Positions 1-5,457 of a DNA stretch of 5,457 bases are shown here, one piece after another (the first letter of the stretch is position 1; the number at the start of each line of letters is the position of its first letter). The position numbers and the translations under genes were made by a program. Source of the stretch: a virus. Location: positions 1-5,457 of IMG/VR virus record IMGVR_UViG_3300045988_003073. One strand, written 5' to 3'. A model generated the notes under the pieces. The model was not told the DNA's origin and ran no database searches. It saw nothing but the letters and a program-made list of their open reading frames with translations.

Positions 1-55
1 TACAACGGCAAAAAGAAAAACGATTTGATGTACTACGCTGGCGGCGAGTACGGAG
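1..55. repeat. Terminal redundancy: 1-55 is identical to 5403-5457. This is an assembly overlap of a circular genome with a unit length of about 5402 nt.
   Basis: Direct comparison of the first and last 55 nt gives an exact match. An ORF reads continuously through the junction. Confidence 0.9.
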
Positions 56-690
56 GAAAAACACATAGACCGCACTATCATGCAATAGTATACGGCTTAA
101 AAATTGAAAAAGAGGAATTAAAAGAGTACAAGAGAGCAAAAGGCAAAGTATACTACACCTGTGAATGGCTCACGAAGCTATGGGGCAAAGGCTTTGTGAT
201 CATAGGTGCAGCAGAATGGCAAAGTATGGCATATACCGCAAGATACTGCACAAAAAAGAGCTATGGAGCAGGAGCAAAAGAATATTACAAGAATTTAGCG
301 ATACAACCGGAAGATAGCAGAATGTCAACCAATCCGGCAATTGGATGGAGGTATTACGAAGAACATAAAGAGGAAATCTATAAAGACGACAGAATACAGC
401 TCAAGAAAGGAAGGAGCTGCAAACCGCCTACATACTTTGATAAACTTTTTGACCTAGAACACTCAGAGGCCGAACCGCTGACGGAAGAAGAGTGCAAAGG
501 AATTGAAGATGTAATAATAAAAGCCGAATCCGAAGAACTGAAAGAAATAAAGCGAAAAAGGCGAAAACTTGCCAATGACGCACTATTTAATCAGCTCAAA
601 CAGACCGGCCTAACTATGCAAGAGTATTATAAGCTAAAAGACCAACGGAATCAAGAAAAATTTAAACAGCTGATCAGAACCGAGGTATAG
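1..690 (+). CDS. Rolling-circle replication initiator (Microviridae VP4/protein A-like), 3' portion. It is continuous in frame with 4944..5402 through the circular junction. The ORF-track 'start' at 25/28 is internal, not a true start.
   Basis: Codons 1-3, 4-6 and onward are in frame with 4944 after subtracting the 5402-nt unit. The translation carries motif II GEYGGKTHRPHYHAIVYG (HxH) and motif III AYTARYCTKKSY (YxxxY..KK, catalytic tyrosines). The C-terminus is charged and coiled-coil-like (EELKEIKRKRRKL). TAG stop at 688-690. Confidence 0.85.
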   Translation, partial: YNGKKKNDLMYYAGGEYGGKTHRPHYHAIVYGLKIEKEELKEYKRAKGKVYYTCEWLTKLWGKGFVIIGAAEWQSMAYTARYCTKKSYGAGAKEYYKNLAIQPEDSRMSTNPAIGWRYYEEHKEEIYKDDRIQLKKGRSCKPPTYFDKLFDLEHSEAEPLTEEECKGIEDVIIKAESEELKEIKRKRRKLANDALFNQLKQTGLTMQEYYKLKDQRNQEKFKQLIRTEV

Positions 691-708
691 CCAGATAGCT
701 GCAAACCA

Positions 709-745
709 GTCAAGGGTAAATAAACGCGCTGCGCGCGCCCTTGAC
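709..745. other. Compound GC-rich stem-loop. The outer 8-bp stem is GTCAAGGG/CCCTTGAC. It encloses an A-rich segment (TAAATAAAC) and an inner CGCGC-TGC-GCGCG hairpin.
   Basis: Perfect reverse complementarity between 709-716 and 738-745. The inner palindrome lies at about 726-737. The structure is intergenic, immediately after the Rep stop. Confidence 0.6.
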
Positions 746-777
746 TAGTCCGCAGCCATCCGGCGGGAGCCAATCAA

Positions 778-814
778 GGGGGTTCACCACAAAGTGGTGA
801 CCCCCTATTTTATT
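778..814 (+). terminator. Rho-independent terminator after Rep.
   Basis: The 12-bp GC-rich stem pairs GGGGGTTCACCAC (778-790) with GTGGTGACCCCC (794-805), with one bulged T and an AAA loop. It is followed by the U-rich run TATTTTATT (806-814). Confidence 0.7.
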
Positions 815-824
815 ATGAGAACGA

Positions 825-856
825 ACAATGGTAACCATTGTTTTTTTTTTTTTTTT
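825..856 (+). terminator. Second hairpin (ACAATGG-TAA-CCATTGT) running into a 16-nt T homopolymer. This looks like a back-up terminator or U-tract.
   Basis: A 7-bp stem spans 825-831 and 835-841. T16 lies at 841-856. Confidence 0.45.
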
Positions 857-864
857 GATAAAAT
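856..864 (+). promoter_or_regulatory. Candidate extended -10 promoter element (TGaTAAAAT), directly after the T tract and upstream of the late gene cluster.
   Basis: TG at 856-857 and TAAAAT at 859-864 give a 5/6 match to TATAAT, with AT-rich sequence upstream. The predicted TSS falls at about 871, right at the RBS, so the leader would be very short. This is a weak call. Confidence 0.25.
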
Positions 865-886
865 GTGAGAAAAGGAGGTGAAATTT

Positions 887-1006
887 ATGGGCTACCGTAA
901 AAGCGTAAATCCCAAGACGGACAAAAAGGTCTTTACCAACACCGCAAAAAAGACCAAGAAAATCAATGTGAATCCGAAACCGAGCCGGGGAGGTGTCAGA
1001 CTGTGA
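887..1006 (+). CDS. Small, highly basic DNA-binding/packaging peptide (phiX174 J / gokushovirus VP8-like), 39 aa: MGYRKSVNPKTDKKVFTNTAKKTKKINVNPKPSRGGVRL.
   Basis: The strong RBS AAGGAGGTG (872-880) sits 6 nt before ATG 887. About 12 of 39 residues are K/R. The size and composition match J/VP8 proteins. The gene is not in the ORF track because it is shorter than 60 aa. Its TGA stop overlaps the GTG start of the next gene (GTGA). Confidence 0.55.
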   Translation: MGYRKSVNPKTDKKVFTNTAKKTKKINVNPKPSRGGVRL

Positions 1007-1185
1007 AAGACGTAGTAAACATTTACATCGACCACGAATGCAAAGACGAACTGCTGGACTGGGCAGAAGAATTTAAGACCAGCAGAAGCAAAGCAGCAGC
1101 AGTGGCTGTAAAGATCGGGCTGAAACACAAAGAAGAGATGTACAAACAGCTGGACAAAGAATGGAGAGAAAAATATGCTTTTTGA
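1003..1185 (+). CDS. Ribbon-helix-helix (CopG/Arc/MetJ-like) DNA-binding protein, 60 aa, GTG start.
   Basis: The RBS GGGGAGGTG (986-994) sits 8 nt before GTG 1003, and there is no in-frame ATG upstream. The secondary-structure pattern is a β-strand VNIYID, helix A ECKDELLDWAEEF, a turn KT-SRS (the classic RHH helix-B N-cap) and helix B KAAAVAVKIGL. Confidence 0.5.
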   Translation: MKDVVNIYIDHECKDELLDWAEEFKTSRSKAAAVAVKIGLKHKEEMYKQLDKEWREKYAF

Positions 1186-1426
1186 AATCTACAGCATCAA
1201 AGACGAACTCGCAGGAACCTTCGGCAACCTGATGGTGGTCAACCCGAAGGTAGCAGCACGAACCTTCCGGTGGATGACCGAGGAGATGGAAAAGGCCGAC
1301 TGCGCAGACAAGCGCGTGTACAAGATGGCAGAATACGACAACGAAACCGGCAAGATCATGCCGATCATGCCGGAAATGGTGTACAACATCGAACAGGCGA
1401 AAAAGGAGATCACCGAAAATGGTTAA
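1175..1426 (+). CDS. Hypothetical 83-aa acidic protein, possibly VP5-like (ssDNA synthesis/packaging accessory protein of gokushoviruses).
   Basis: RBS GGAGAGAAAAAT precedes ATG 1175. The gene overlaps the previous gene by 11 nt and the next by 8 nt (ATGGTTAA). Size and position match VP5, and the N-terminus (LFEIYSIKDELAGTFGNL...AARTF) resembles VP5 proteins as I remember them. This resemblance is unverified. Confidence 0.35.
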   Translation: MLFEIYSIKDELAGTFGNLMVVNPKVAARTFRWMTEEMEKADCADKRVYKMAEYDNETGKIMPIMPEMVYNIEQAKKEITENG

Positions 1427-1916
1427 AATCTACAAGCCATACGGCGATGAGAAGCCGGAAGCCAAACCGAACAATCCCGGCAACCAGTACGAACCGGAGT
1501 ATAAAGAGCGGTACGATGAAAACGGGGAAGCATACCTCGAAAAAGTGGGCGAAGTGGACACATACGAAAAAATCCAGAGCTACCGAGACGAATGCGATGT
1601 GATGGCAATCCTCAGCCGGTACGCTGCCGGTGATGAAACGGCACTCGCAAGGCCGGGGTACTACATCGACACAACCAAACTGCCCGCAACGTACACCGAG
1701 TATATCAACATGATGCGCGACCAGCGCGAAAAGTTCGATCAGTTGCCACTGAGCATCCGTCAGGCATTCGGCATGAGCTTTGAGAAGTGGGCAGCAAGCG
1801 CCGGTGAACAGGAATGGTGCGAAAAAATGGGCATTTTGCCGAAAAATGAAACTGCAGCACAGCCTGATCAGAGCGGCGAAGATGACAAAGTGCACAAAAG
1901 AAAGGAACAAGCATGA
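1419..1916 (+). CDS. Putative internal scaffolding protein (VP3-like), 165 aa, acidic.
   Basis: RBS AAGGAG (1403-1408) precedes ATG 1419. The gene lies immediately upstream of the capsid gene with an ATGA stop/start overlap at 1913-1916. It is acidic, about 160 aa, and has a C-terminal LPLSIRQAF-type motif, consistent with gokushovirus VP3. Confidence 0.5.
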   Translation: MVKIYKPYGDEKPEAKPNNPGNQYEPEYKERYDENGEAYLEKVGEVDTYEKIQSYRDECDVMAILSRYAAGDETALARPGYYIDTTKLPATYTEYINMMRDQREKFDQLPLSIRQAFGMSFEKWAASAGEQEWCEKMGILPKNETAAQPDQSGEDDKVHKRKEQA

Positions 1917-3610
1917 ACCGCAACAGCGAACAGCATTATAGCCAAGTACCACGCGCAGAAATCCGGCGAGCCAAATTCAAGCGAGATTTCTCCCTGCTCA
2001 CAACCATCAACGAGGGCGATCTAGTACCGATCTACTGTGATGAGGTGCTTCCTGCAGATACCTTCAAAATCAATCTTAACAGTCTGGTGCGTATGGCAAC
2101 ACCGCTTTATCCTGTCATGGATAACGCGTACATGGATTTCTATTTCTTCTTTGTACCGGCACGTTTACTGTGGGAACACTTCGTAAACCTGATGGGCCAG
2201 AACGATAAAACGTTCTGGGCAGAAACAACCGAATACACGACGCCAGTAACCACTGCACCCACTGGAGGCTGGAAAGTGGGCACGATCGCGGACTATTGCT
2301 GCATTCCGACCGGAGTGGAAGGGCTGAAAGTCAACTCCATGCCGTTCCGCGCTTACGTCAAGATCTGGAACGAGTGGTTCAGGGACGAGAATCTGCAACA
2401 GCCGGCACAGATGAGCATGGGAGACGAAACGACCACCGGCAGCAACGGCGAAGCAACCGGCAGACAGAATATGCTGGGCGAAACCGCATTACCGCTGACG
2501 TTGGGCGGTGAAACCGACTATATCACCGAAGCGCAGAAAGGCGCAAAGCCGCTGAAAGTCTGCAAGTACAAGGACTACTTTACCAGCTGTCTGCCTTCTC
2601 CTTTGAAGGCAGCAGAACCGGTAAAAATTCCGATGACCGGTAACGCGCCGGTAGGCTTGTACAAAGACAACAAGTTAACAAATTTTGGGACGGTAACCGG
2701 AAGAGCCGGAATCTACTTCAACACAGACAACAGAGCATCAATCCTGAACAGCCAAAACGGAGACAGAACAAGCACAGTATCGGGCAGCACAAGCCCAAGC
2801 GGAGGAGCCGCCGACATTGCATACCTAGGCGCAAACTTAAGCACCGTAAACGCCACAACCATCAACGAGCTGCGCAACGCAATCGCGGTGCAGCACATAT
2901 TTGAGAGAGACGCCAGAACCGGCACGCGGTACAAAGAGATTTTAAACGGAGCGTGGGGGGTAATCAGCCCGGATGCGCGACTTGACCGGAGTGAATACAT
3001 CGGCGGTTACAGAATGCCGATCAATATCAATCAGGTCATTCAAACGTCCTCGTCCGACACGACCAGCCCGCAGGGCAACACAGCAGCGTACAGCATGACG
3101 ACCTTGAGCCGGGAAATGTGCACATACTCGGCAACCGAGCACGGCTATGTGATCGGACTGGCAGCCGCGCGAGTAGATCACAGCTACCAGCAAGGACTCT
3201 CGAGAATGTGGACAAGAAGCACCAGATTCTCGTACTACGACCCGATGCTGGCAAACCTCGGCGAACAGGCCGTACTGAATCAGGAAATCTATGCACAGGG
3301 CAACGAAGCCGACACGGAAGTGTTTGGCTACCAAGAAGCCTGGGCGGATTACCGCTACAGGACTAACATGGTAACCAGTGAAATGCGCAGCAGTTACGCG
3401 CAGACCTTGGACGCATGGCACTACGCCGACAAGTACAACGAGCTGCCGAAGCTGTCAAGCAGCTGGATAAAGGAAGGTACAGAGAACATCGACAGGACGC
3501 TGGCGGTAAAAAGCGGTCTGTCTCACCAATTTATCTGCAACTTCTTCTATGATCAGACATGGACGCGTCCCATGCCTATTTACAGCATACCGGGTCTGGA
3601 TACCATCTAA
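1913..3610 (+). CDS. Major capsid protein VP1 (Microviridae F/VP1 family), 565 aa.
   Basis: The N-terminus has FSLLTTINEGDLVPIYCDEVLPADTF...PVMDNAYMDFYFFFVPARLLW. Further in are the conserved INELRNAIAVQHIFERDARTGTRYKEILNGAWGV block and a long internal insertion typical of gokushovirus VP1. The length fits the family. Confidence 0.92.
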   Translation: MNRNSEQHYSQVPRAEIRRAKFKRDFSLLTTINEGDLVPIYCDEVLPADTFKINLNSLVRMATPLYPVMDNAYMDFYFFFVPARLLWEHFVNLMGQNDKTFWAETTEYTTPVTTAPTGGWKVGTIADYCCIPTGVEGLKVNSMPFRAYVKIWNEWFRDENLQQPAQMSMGDETTTGSNGEATGRQNMLGETALPLTLGGETDYITEAQKGAKPLKVCKYKDYFTSCLPSPLKAAEPVKIPMTGNAPVGLYKDNKLTNFGTVTGRAGIYFNTDNRASILNSQNGDRTSTVSGSTSPSGGAADIAYLGANLSTVNATTINELRNAIAVQHIFERDARTGTRYKEILNGAWGVISPDARLDRSEYIGGYRMPININQVIQTSSSDTTSPQGNTAAYSMTTLSREMCTYSATEHGYVIGLAAARVDHSYQQGLSRMWTRSTRFSYYDPMLANLGEQAVLNQEIYAQGNEADTEVFGYQEAWADYRYRTNMVTSEMRSSYAQTLDAWHYADKYNELPKLSSSWIKEGTENIDRTLAVKSGLSHQFICNFFYDQTWTRPMPIYSIPGLDTI

Positions 3611-3622
3611 TGAGGTGATAAT

Positions 3623-4522
3623 ATGGCACTAACCGAATTATTGCCGATCATTACAGGCACGTTGGAAATTGCTGGAAAAGCAGCCGGATTTATCAACAGC
3701 CTACGCGGGAGCACAAGCAGCAGCATGGGACAGAGCGGCATGAACCAGCAGATCAGCAGCGGAAGCCAAAGCGGGAGCATGAGCAGCGGAACACAAGCAG
3801 CGGGAAGCAGCACCCAGACAGGCAGCGTCTCGGGAATTGCAAACCTACTCAGCAACGCACTAGGAACAGCAACCGGCAACAACAGCCAAAGCGCGGCAAC
3901 CTTCAACCAAGGGAGCGCCCAGACAGCGAACAATCTGCAAGCGGGTATGTGGACATACGCAAACGGGCTGAATATGCTGAGCAACCTTATAAACAACGGC
4001 CTAAACTATGCAAGCATGACCAGCGCACGCCAGTACAACAGCCGAGAAGCTGCGGCACAGCGCGAATGGTCGGAAAGAATGAGCAGCACAGCATACCAAC
4101 GCGGAGTAAAAGACCTCCAAGCAGCAGGGCTTAACCCGATACTGGCAGCATACAACGGATTCGGGGCAAGCACTCCAAGCGGGGGAACAGCTTCAAGCGG
4201 CATACAGAGCTTTGCACAGACCAGTGCAGCAGCAATACCATCAGCACACACCGCAACCATGCAAGCTATGTACGACTACGGCAACAATACAAGCCAGTTT
4301 CTGCAGAACGCAATGGCAGCGATCAACACAGCAAGGCAGTCGAACGACTGGCAGAGCGCAGAACAAATGCAGCAAGTGACCAACCAAGTCATGAGCAGCA
4401 GCGCAAAGACCACAAGCCAGCTGAGCAAGAAGACAGCAAGCGAAACCAGCCAGACAGAAACCGGAAAGAGCCACGAGATAAGCGGGAAAGGGAGCTTGGA
4501 ATACCAGAGCAAGAAAAAATAA
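3623..4522 (+). CDS. DNA pilot / minor capsid protein VP2 (H-like), 299 aa.
   Basis: RBS GAGGTGA (3612-3618) precedes ATG 3623. The conserved core [31 protein letters not shown] is characteristic of Microviridae VP2. It is flanked by low-complexity S/G/Q/T/N-rich regions. Confidence 0.85.
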
Positions 4523-4525
4523 ATC

Positions 4526-4554
4526 TTGAAGAATGTAGAAAAGAGGTGTATAAT
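4526..4554 (+). promoter_or_regulatory. σ70-type promoter: -35 TTGAAG (4526-4531), 17-nt spacer, -10 TATAAT (4549-4554).
   Basis: A perfect -10 hexamer with a 4/6 -35 at optimal spacing, followed 44 nt downstream by an RBS and ATG. It is in the only sizable VP2-Rep intergenic segment. Confidence 0.6.
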
Positions 4555-4575
4555 ATGGGTGTATCAATCGTACAC
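4545..4575. promoter_or_regulatory. Operator-like repeat cluster. Direct repeats GGTGTAT (4545-4551 and 4558-4564) plus the inverted element GTGTA(n7)TACAC (4560-4575). It overlaps the -10 box and the TSS.
   Basis: Exact 7-mer direct repeat spaced 13 bp apart, and a 5-bp inverted repeat. This arrangement is typical of RHH repressor operators overlapping their own promoter. Confidence 0.4.
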
Positions 4576-4597
4576 TTTAAGTCAAAGGAGCAATAAA

Positions 4598-4789
4598 ATG
4601 AAAAGCCAAGTAGCAAAACGAATCAATATCAACCTAACCAAAGAAGAAATAGAAAACCTGAAAAGCATCAAAGAGTATTTCGGACAACAAGGCATGAACA
4701 CAAGTGACTGCATAAGACTGGCAATCAACAGTGTAGGCCAAAAAATAAAGTCAGGAAATTTTTTAGAAAACGGGAAGATCGTATACTAA
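4598..4789 (+). CDS. Ribbon-helix-helix DNA-binding protein (CopG/Arc family), 63 aa: MKSQVAKRININLTKEEIENLKSIKEYFGQQGMNTSDCIRLAINSVGQKIKSGNFLENGKIVY.
   Basis: RBS AAGGAG (4585-4590) sits 7 nt before ATG 4598. The pattern is a β-strand RININLT, helix A KEEIENLKSIKEYF, a turn ending NTSD and helix B CIRLAINSV (IRxAI consensus). The ORF-track extension back to the TTG at 4526 would begin upstream of the predicted TSS (about 4561) and is rejected. Confidence 0.6.
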   Translation: MKSQVAKRININLTKEEIENLKSIKEYFGQQGMNTSDCIRLAINSVGQKIKSGNFLENGKIVY

Positions 4790-4804
4790 AACGACATATC
4801 TTGA

Positions 4805-4819
4805 CGCGGTTACACCGCG
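4805..4819. other. Small GC hairpin CGCGGT-TAC-ACCGCG.
   Basis: Six-bp perfect stem 16 nt after the RHH stop, with no U-tract. Confidence 0.4.
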
Positions 4820-4875
4820 CCAATGAGAAACAAAAATCCATGGGCAAAAATAAGCGGGAGCTAAATTTTGTGTCA

Positions 4876-4914
4876 GTGGGGGGAATAGACATCAAGAGGG
4901 TCTATTCCCCCCAC
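4876..4914. other. Strong stem-loop with a 15-bp perfect stem GTGGGGGGAATAGAC / GTCTATTCCCCCCAC and a 9-nt loop, 30 nt upstream of the Rep start.
   Basis: Exact reverse complementarity 4876-4890 versus 4900-4914, with G6/C6 tracts. It is not followed by a T-run. Confidence 0.7.
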
Positions 4915-4943
4915 TCTCCCCGGGAAGGAGGAAACGTCCATAC

Positions 4944-5457
4944 ATGGCATGTGCAAGGCCGAACATAAGGATTTTTAGCGAAACCGACAAAGACTATTTT
5001 GCGCCGCTGGACTGGTACATACAGCACGGAAAAAAGAGAACCGGCAAGCCGGACATGATAACGACACAAAAAAGGCGCGAGCGAGAACTGAAAAAGATGA
5101 TCAAAACCGGCGAAGCAGTACTCTGTCCGTGCAAACGGTGCAATGGCTGCATCATGGACAGGGGAAAGAGTTGGGCAAACCGCATGGAAATGGAACTACC
5201 ATACCATGAACAAGCGTGGTTTTTGACACTGACATACGACAACGAACACGCACCAATGAGTTATGACCAAGGTCTGGGCGTGGATGAACTGACAGGTGAA
5301 GTGGTAACAGAAAACTTAACGCTTGACTATACAGACTTAGAAAAATTTTGGAAAAGGCTCAGGCGCTGGACAGAGTACAACAATAAAGCGATCTACATAG
5401 AGTACAACGGCAAAAAGAAAAACGATTTGATGTACTACGCTGGCGGCGAGTACGGAG
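4944..5457 (+). CDS. Replication initiator Rep/VP4, 5' portion. It runs off the window end and continues at 1..690 by circular wrap. Total length is about 382 aa.
   Basis: RBS GGAAGGAGG (4923-4931) precedes ATG 4944. An in-frame TAA at 4851-4853 lies upstream, with no earlier start codon. The N-terminus MACARPN matches the usual MAC..P start of gokushovirus VP4. A Cys cluster CPCKRCNGC is present. Motif I is FLTLTYD. Bases 5403-5457 duplicate 1-55. Confidence 0.85.
   Translation, partial: MACARPNIRIFSETDKDYFAPLDWYIQHGKKRTGKPDMITTQKRRERELKKMIKTGEAVLCPCKRCNGCIMDRGKSWANRMEMELPYHEQAWFLTLTYDNEHAPMSYDQGLGVDELTGEVVTENLTLDYTDLEKFWKRLRRWTEYNNKAIYIEYNGKKKNDLMYYAGGEYG

Follow-up and report, generated by a model that had tools for sequence, protein, structure and literature searches.

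CopG (RepA) of the rolling-circle plasmid pMV158, encoded in the copG-repB cassette, and ORF56 of the Sulfolobus plasmid pRN1 are small proteins of the ribbon-helix-helix (RHH) type. Here we describe a gene with a similar placement in a microvirus, which we refer to as RHH-1. It lies in IMG/VR record IMGVR_UViG_3300045988_003073 (positions 1 to 5457), a stretch of 5457 nt that we call the window and that comprises a circular microvirus genome of 5402 nt together with 55 nt of terminal redundancy. RHH-1 encodes a protein of 63 amino acids (aa) and is preceded by a promoter (P1) with repeats across its -10 element. The order VP2, P1, RHH-1, hairpin and Rep is kept in 38 of the 38 related genomes that we compared. 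These were gathered from contig look-ups, IMG/VR and GenBank, and each was rotated to its RHH start; a 9-kb contig with a weak RHH match (L046) was left out, as it had neither the promoter block nor microvirus genes. We think that RHH-1 is probably a dimeric autorepressor of P1 as an early promoter, giving an early pulse of itself and of Rep, and in relatives of anti-defence cargo as well.

Like CopG and ORF56, RHH-1 is a small RHH protein (45-63 aa among these proteins) whose gene directly precedes a HUH rolling-circle Rep gene and shares its direction. One promoter lies upstream of both the RHH gene (end at 4789) and Rep (start at 4944), and this layout was found in every relative. As in the CopG cassette, that promoter is overlapped by repeated or pseudo-symmetric sites. 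There are also clear differences, namely that CopG is encoded by a plasmid and RHH-1 by a virus, that their sequence kinship is remote, and that the CopG site is a 13-bp pseudo-symmetric element whereas the RHH-1 locus has three direct half-sites and one inverted half-site at a spacing of ~13 bp. Unlike the CopG cassette, the RHH-1 locus also contains a conserved hairpin between the regulator and Rep, and its promoter unit has been duplicated in relatives to drive cargo genes.

A second point of comparison is provided by the anti-CRISPR-associated (Aca) repressors of anti-CRISPR (acr) promoters. Aca14, an RHH-type Aca protein of Pasteurella multocida reported in July 2026, was shown experimentally to bind an inverted repeat over the -10 element and to control its own operon and a neighbouring one (bioRxiv 10.64898/2026.07.27.740549). 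The RHH-1 system resembles it in that the repeats overlap the -10 element and the motif recurs at a second promoter driving further small genes, and in one relative (MG945373) the RHH gene stands in the aca position, downstream of an anti-defence gene. An operon with an acr gene upstream, which is one criterion for an Aca protein, is present in MG945373 and absent from the window. RHH-1 is not a member of the Aca14 family, as judged against WP_005725436.1 (hhalign probability 0.4%, BLASTP E=4.5). In Aca14 the RHH domain occupies the C-terminal half after a helical extension, whereas in RHH-1 it is N-terminal and followed by a variable C-terminal tail, and the Aca14 operator TGTATATGTAAGCATATACA differs from the RHH-1 repeats in both sequence and layout. 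Unlike Aca14, RHH-1 is carried by a 5.4-kb single-stranded DNA (ssDNA) microvirus, is fixed beside Rep, and is present in the window without any acr gene. The Omega repressor (pSM19035, inc18 plasmids), which was compared by fold only, has contiguous heptads of another motif, whereas the RHH-1 copies lie ~13 bp apart.

Microviruses are usually pictured as minimal phages in which expression is set by promoter and terminator strength only. A global survey in 2022 reported no accessory genes beyond methyltransferases and lysis genes (PMC9239249), which is consistent with the remark in an earlier, sequence-only reading of this stretch that dedicated transcription factors are not a recognised part of the gokushovirus gene set. 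Our full-text literature searches did not find any paper linking RHH proteins or anti-CRISPR genes specifically to Microviridae. The RHH-1 system combines two known types of autorepressor cassette, CopG-Rep and acr-aca, in a virus family where, in the searchable literature, neither has been described. One precedent for a regulator has been proposed in Microvirus AZ-2020 (ON111452), in which a 68-aa “putative transcription regulation protein” upstream of Rep was suggested to bind DNA on the basis of HHpred and ColabFold and was described as helix-turn-helix (PMC9584320). Like RHH-1, it is encoded by a small open reading frame (ORF) directly upstream of Rep in a gokushovirus-type genome. The protein itself (MAIEKADKVTGDLFDT...) does not belong to the RHH-1 family, as it has no N-terminal strand and neither the KRININLT nor the SDIIR motif.

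The RHH-1 protein family

On its own, the 63-aa protein of the window had no match in a direct Pfam scan at E<=1, and its PHROG match to “transcriptional repressor” was weak (E=2.5e-4). We found 11 close homologs among 5.8 billion proteins, all of them on contigs of 3.1-5.6 kb. The family grew to ~252 clusters at 90% identity when 1.8 billion representatives were searched exhaustively with a profile and a second, word-indexed search was run after that. Among the matches listed, nearly all of the longest contigs for these clusters are <=5.9 kb, the exceptions being one of 8778 nt and the 6963-nt locus L017. The motifs MKSQVAKRININLT and SDIIRDAI are common to the family. When 27 members were scanned, 14 matched Pfam RHH_1 (PF01402; best E=1e-4), while any other family was matched by at most two members, with RHH_3, RHH_9, 56B_RHH and RepB-RCR_reg occurring as lone matches. 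The RHH identity assigned in the sequence-only reading is therefore borne out by Pfam at the level of the family and not by the single sequence.

Profile comparison points in the same direction. The family profile was aligned to CopG by hhalign with a probability of 86%, placing R8, N10 and N12 over R4, T6 and T8 of CopG, which we take to be the base-contacting residues in the CopG-DNA structure. We predict that R8, N10 and N12 are the base-reading residues of RHH-1. A sequence search of the PDB with the broader profile had TTHA0139 as its top match (E=0.008) and also listed ORF56 of plasmid pRN1; the same search with a narrow profile of 11 sequences returned noise only. The predicted fold of the monomer comprises a beta-strand at about residues 7-13 (KRININL), helix A at 15-29, helix B at 35-52, and a short C-terminal hairpin (NFLENGKIVY). 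This is the RHH topology: an N-terminal strand in which polar and hydrophobic residues alternate, two helices behind it, and a G-x-S/T/N turn ahead of helix B. Because of the family profile and the fold, rather than the single sequence, we regard membership of the RHH superfamily as secure, with RHH-1 representing a microvirus-specific family that has so far been unannotated.

Conservation within the family is concentrated in the strand. In an alignment of 56 sequences, no change is seen at R8, N10, L13 and T14, and K7 and N12 reach at least 90% conservation, whereas helix A and the C-terminal tail are free to vary. One member, P0012 (125 aa, on a contig of 5520 nt), is a tandem double RHH protein, which the profile search matched over two stretches. 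In effect it is a dimer made of one chain, and this fits an RHH-1 unit that would work as a dimer.

The closest GenBank records, MG945373 and MT135351, are unverified Microviridae from pig faeces with ~89-90% nucleotide identity to the window, and neither carries an annotation at the position of the RHH-1 gene. The gene was unannotated or misnamed in all relatives examined, which is an annotation gap to mend. For example, the JGI label “sulfur relay DsrC/TusE family protein” on an identical protein (cluster P0001) is spurious, with 15 bits against a cutoff of 53.5.

An additional feature is found at the C-terminus of some members. Eleven of the 56 representatives, from several subtypes, end in an acidic ...(D/E)(D/E)LPF or DDFLYF tip (P0009, P0016, P0018, P0032, P0059, P0061, P0063, P0064, P0067, P0074 and P0096; loci L019-L021, L023 and L025), and the protein of the window is without it. 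We consider this tip to resemble the C-terminal tip of SSB, DDDIPF, and host replication or repair proteins may use it as a handle.

A conserved promoter block and its second copy

The sequence-only reading had placed a 63-aa ORF between the pilot-protein gene and Rep and had described a near-consensus promoter with two GGTGTAT repeats and an inverted GTGTA/TACAC over its -10 element and start. All of these elements are present (Table 1), and the ORF is preceded by a Shine-Dalgarno sequence. The sigma70-type P1 (TTGAAG-17-TATAAT, 4526-4554) matches the consensus at 10 of 12 positions and is the best plus-strand match in the genome, although the promoter scan by itself is weak, with 10 sites on both strands against 4.8 +/- 2.1 in shuffled sequences. 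The pattern RGTGTAY occurs five times in the whole window against 1.44 expected, and three of the five lie inside 32 nt at 4545-4576. These copies came from the pattern search; a repeat search of 4490-4620 with a minimum length and seed of 6 returned none. With a degenerate copy further upstream, the half-sites at P1 number three direct and one inverted, in a 13-bp register. An 87-aa ORF with a TTG start at 4526 is a mere mechanical extension of the RHH-1 reading frame.

Both the small ORF and the repeats, whose conservation had been set beforehand as tests of the claim, recur in the relatives, with the ORF in its place in all 38 genomes. The 36 distinct upstream sequences keep a block from the -35 element to ~+20 and share TTGACA-17-TATAWT within gAAAagAGGTGTATAwTATGrGTGTAy.AAtC.cACACtT. 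Mean pairwise identity falls from 80% in the 58-nt P1 block to 40% in the 58 nt directly ahead of it, and is 57% in the coding DNA of RHH and 46% in the RHH protein; the P1 block is the most conserved DNA of the neighbourhood. We regard this as the pattern of a regulator and its operator because the strand residues and the site stay invariant while other parts of the protein drift.

Recombination around the gene gives a similar picture. In locus L028, Rep, VP5 and VP3 are 96-99% identical to those of the window, VP2 is 66% identical and RHH ~53% identical over residues 1-43, and the operator is nearly identical. MG945373 is a mosaic of the same kind, with an RHH protein 59% identical to that of the window. 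The RHH gene is a hot spot of recombination, the region from VP2 to RHH being exchanged between lineages with the operator unchanged.

We also considered other functions for the P1 repeats. As a single strand, the block folds no better than shuffled sequences (z=-0.23), and the predicted start lies inside the left arm of the inverted repeat, so an RNA or ssDNA hairpin was rejected and the repeats are read as a double-stranded protein-binding site. A replication origin was considered unlikely, as the block is a canonical promoter followed by a ribosome-binding site (RBS) and is duplicated ahead of cargo ORFs. A conserved ATG right after the -10 element opens a mini-ORF of 13 codons (MGVSIVHFKSKEQ*, window 4555-4596). 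It is in frame with the RHH gene in some relatives, which explains the 77-aa gene call P0002. With no RBS, and with a position at or ahead of the predicted start of transcription, the mini-ORF is probably part of the operator and not a coding sequence.

Fifteen of the 38 relatives have this promoter/operator unit twice, the second copy (P2) being located after Rep. Its sequence is CTTGACAAGTGTATnnnnnAGGTGTATAATAAAGGTGTA..., with half-sites in the 13-bp register of P1 and, as at P1, conserved repeats across -10 and +1. Behind P2 come an RBS, one variable small ORF and a T-run, with the exception of L037, in which the block is truncated and there is no cargo ORF. In L034 and L035 the cargo is a homolog of AcrIC5 (E=2.7e-26). 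AcrIC5 is a broad-range inhibitor of type I-C CRISPR-Cas that has been validated experimentally, with homologs in gut Actinobacteria and Firmicutes (PMC7913775). The other cargo genes include an acidic family of 52-54 aa (MKSYYEEEVENCAAALYDGGWRS...), with more divergent relatives of 56-72 aa in L022 and L036, a family starting MTLKSYRIEMTNTKTGKK..., a cysteine-rich protein of 55 aa, and a family starting MKNEIIDTHTDRNGNKW.... None of these has a Pfam match, and we consider them (at least four families) to be candidate new anti-defence proteins. One P2 cargo family is also present in MZ821031.

Cargo can also be found at P1 itself. In MG945373, the P1 block is followed by a 61-aa AcrIC5 homolog whose stop overlaps the start codon of the RHH gene (ATGA), and this ORF matches the entire Pfam AcrIC5 model (PF22147; E=2e-25, with 89 bits where the cutoff is 27). 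We read this arrangement as an acr-aca signature because a conserved strong promoter with repeats over its -10 element occurs together with a small DNA-binding protein and interchangeable small ORFs. The window genome has P1 only; we did not find any ORF between P1 and the RHH gene, or any AcrIC5-like gene anywhere in it. Homologs of AcrIC5 also occur in three gut tailed-phage contigs (tblastn), and in KT264799 one is located after VP4. That record has no RHH-1 family gene (tblastn), and the stretch of it that was read has no promoter block.

The role of RHH-1

The scan of the plus strand between the RHH stop (4789) and the Rep start (4944) did not find any promoter-like or terminator-like site. 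A terminator-like hairpin with a T-run follows Rep at 823-859 and is the only such plus-strand site adjoining these genes. Because there is no intervening site and a strong terminator stands after Rep, P1, RHH-1, Rep and the terminator are most simply one transcription unit, and we presume that Rep is co-transcribed from P1. An autorepressor that gates Rep, as the sequence-only reading had suggested, would fit this anatomy. Once the incoming single-stranded genome had been converted to the double-stranded replicative form, the near-consensus P1 would fire, and transcription would cover the RHH gene and then, by read-through across the hairpin, Rep as far as the terminator. As RHH-1 accumulated, its two-stranded beta-ribbon (R8, N10 and N12) would bind the (A/G)TGTA half-sites ~13 bp apart. 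The bound half-sites would cover the promoter spacer, the -10 element, the start site and positions to ~+13, so that RNA polymerase would be occluded and P1 shut down. The outcome would be a burst of early expression followed by repression, as with CopG-RepB and with the Aca repressors that act at anti-CRISPR promoters. The same unit, at P1 or P2, would in relatives also drive one variable small cargo gene. Because this cargo is of the anti-defence type and includes an AcrIC5 homolog, the closest functional analogue of RHH-1 may be an Aca-type repressor as much as CopG.

Several points weigh against this interpretation. The binding of RHH-1 to the P1 repeats is a prediction from sequence, and a half-site spacing of 13 bp is not a whole helical turn, which leaves the geometry of binding in doubt. 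The conservation of the block is partly that of a mere promoter, with its -35 and -10 elements. The protein of the window reaches the RHH superfamily only by way of its family profile and fold, and its genome carries no cargo gene, so an Aca-type role is extrapolated from relatives. The scan did not find a terminator-like site between the late genes (VP2) and P1. If late transcription starts at the candidate late promoter near 848-856, it may therefore continue across the RHH gene and Rep, and repression of P1 would then control less. The transcript could also be blocked or processed at the long hairpin before Rep, which makes co-expression of Rep less than certain. Finally, a second RHH-like protein encoded at 1003-1185 in the same genome could in principle bind the P1 repeats. 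It is a less apt candidate, as its reading strand differs from genome to genome and some relatives with the block do not have the gene (e.g., L014 and L019).

The absence of cargo from the window is also what would be expected if RHH-1 were an orphan Aca protein that only silences a strong anti-defence promoter. With the cargo lost here, its role would be reduced to mere autoregulation, and Rep would be independent of it. The P2 copies, which drive cargo only, and the order promoter, AcrIC5 homolog, RHH in MG945373, which is the classic acr-aca order, are consistent with this idea. However, the RHH gene and P1 occur in every relative regardless of cargo, always directly upstream of Rep and with no promoter-like or terminator-like site between. 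Because they are universal and always next to Rep, we favour a core function over a leftover and consider an orphan Aca protein unlikely. A role that does involve Rep, and that we find rather improbable, is that of a replication accessory factor binding near the origin and aiding the nicking or loading of the HUH-type Rep, as TraY, TraM, PcfF and NikA do with relaxases, with any effect on transcription being secondary. The RHH gene lies directly upstream of Rep and beside a strongly covarying hairpin that is a plausible origin, the relaxosome RHH proteins TraM, ArtA and TraY are among the structural matches of RHH-1, and the acidic ...LPF tip of some representatives hints at contact with host replication proteins. 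Yet the conserved repeats are located inside a canonical -35/-10 promoter with an RBS after it and not at the hairpin; the pattern search did not find RGTGTAY between 4790 and 4944; the block is duplicated ahead of cargo ORFs far from the hairpin; and the protein of the window does not have the tip.

Many other structural matches of RHH-1 are RHH antitoxins (e.g., MazE, ParD, TacA and VapB), and one could therefore suppose that it belongs to a toxin-antitoxin pair, or else that it regulates genes of the host. We regard this as very improbable. The neighbours of RHH-1 are VP2 and Rep, there is no toxin-like partner, and Pfam and PHROGs did not reveal a toxin domain in the window ORFs scanned. 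Moreover, the strongly conserved candidate site lies in the phage's own promoter, and the family occurs essentially on contigs of microvirus size only. The host-directed regulator that the sequence-only reading had offered as its other option thus finds no support.

If RHH-1 is an autorepressor of P1, a conserved virus-encoded repressor with its operator would mean that there is trans-acting temporal control of the replication gene in at least one abundant gut clade. A broader proposal, which we make tentatively, is that a gut microvirus clade may run a small early regulon of one or two near-consensus promoters with GTGTA operators, a microvirus-specific RHH repressor, and positions into which interchangeable anti-defence genes can be plugged (homologs of AcrIC5 and four or more unannotated families). 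If true, this would represent, in the searchable literature, the first acr-aca-type locus and the first dedicated transcription factor for Microviridae, and the ORFs behind P2 would be a ready list of candidate new anti-defence proteins. That one control unit drives an AcrIC5 homolog and variable ORFs suggests that even ssDNA phages of 5 kb have anti-CRISPR or anti-defence cargo under regulation. The conserved promoter block is a simple sequence handle for finding such cargo in metagenomes, and together with Aca14, RHH-1 widens the search for Aca-type regulators beyond helix-turn-helix proteins.

Genome features and hairpins

The gene set of the window is of the gokushovirus type (VP1, VP2, VP3, VP5 and Rep), and every gene is on the plus strand. 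The coordinates of these genes, of the elements around RHH-1, and of P2 and the AcrIC5 homologs in relatives are given in Table 1.

Table 1. Features of the window, followed by P2 and AcrIC5 loci in relatives.
Feature	Position	Strand	Remarks
P1 -35 hexamer, TTGAAG	4526..4531	+	Promoter scan and alignment; TTGACA in nearly all relatives
Half-site 0, degenerate ATGTA	4533..4537	+	13 bp upstream of half-site 1; GTGTA in MG945373 and P2 copies
Repeat 1, GGTGTAT	4545..4551	+	Candidate operator half-site overlapping -10; columns conserved at >=90%, AGGTGTATA
P1 -10 hexamer, TATAAT	4549..4554	+	Promoter scan and alignment of 36 relatives
Repeat 2, GGTGTAT	4558..4564	+	Candidate operator half-site across predicted +1 (~4561)
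Inverted copy, AGTGTAC (GTACACT on +)	4570..4576	-	Candidate operator half-site at ~+10 to +16
Shine-Dalgarno of RHH-1, AAGGAG	4585-4590	+	7 nt before ATG; RBS position kept in relatives
RHH-1 gene	4598-4789	+	63 aa; ATG 4598, TAA 4789; protein MKSQVAKRININLT...
Conserved TTGTGTCA	4868-4875		Ahead of hairpin
Perfect 16-bp hairpin	4875..4915	+	Stem 4875-4890/4900-4915; AGTGGGGGGAATAGAC / loop ATCAAGAGG / GTCTATTCCCCCCACT; between RHH-1 gene and Rep
Rep/VP4	4944 across circular junction to 690	+	4944..5457 is the 5' part; 382 aa; Pfam REP_ORF2-G2P and phrog_942 on C-terminal part
Intrinsic terminator-like hairpin	823..859	+	9-bp stem and T-run of ~17, after Rep
Basic protein	878-1006	+	39-42 aa
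60-aa ORF	1003-1185	+	GTG start; second RHH-like protein, MKDVVNIYIDHECKDELLDWAEEFKTSRSKAAAVAVKIGL...
VP5	1175-1426	+	
VP3	1419-1916	+	Scaffold protein
VP1	1913-3610	+	Capsid protein
VP2	3623-4522	+	Pilot protein
P2 in L009, L014, L015, L017, L022, L024, L026, L027, L030, L033-L037, L039	~1520-1660 nt after RHH start (2951 in L017)		
AcrIC5 homolog, L011 (MG945373)	~3757-3939		Unannotated
AcrIC5 homolog, L034 and L035	Rotated ~1606-1789		Unannotated
AcrIC5 homolog, L047 (KT264799)	889-1089		Unannotated

The hairpin between RHH-1 and Rep would be part of the P1 transcript and is a candidate origin of replication or leader structure of Rep. Of its 14 predicted pairs, 12 show compensatory double changes among 13 diverse relatives, and conservation of the loop ATCAAGA is at least 90%. 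Rfam has no family for this hairpin, and an Rfam scan of the whole window did not find any meaningful family. A similar hairpin is found directly after VP4 in the more distant Gokushovirus WZ-2015a (L047 ~660-705).

The second RHH-like protein (1003-1185) is encoded between the basic protein and VP5. A homolog search returned one cluster only, and positional homologs were taken from the loci. A profile of six of these matches RHH proteins of the PDB by sequence, namely ORF56 of pRN1 (E=1.2e-4), TraM (0.014), CopG (0.055) and ArtA (0.22), and an hhalign comparison with the RHH-1 family gave a probability of 46%.

Two more long hairpins lie between the Rep stop and the terminator, at 690-764 and 778-806, and these may be a complementary-strand origin. 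The first has sub-threshold matches to miRNA precursors in Rfam (32 bits against a gathering score of 91), and the second, whose left arm has one bulged T, reads GGGGGT(T)CACCAC-AAA-GTGGTGACCCCC. The terminator is directly followed by TGATAAAAT (848-856), which resembles an extended -10 element and lies just ahead of the RBS for the first late gene, and relatives carry TGGTAAAAT in its place. This element is a candidate late promoter, and it is free of GTGTA sites.

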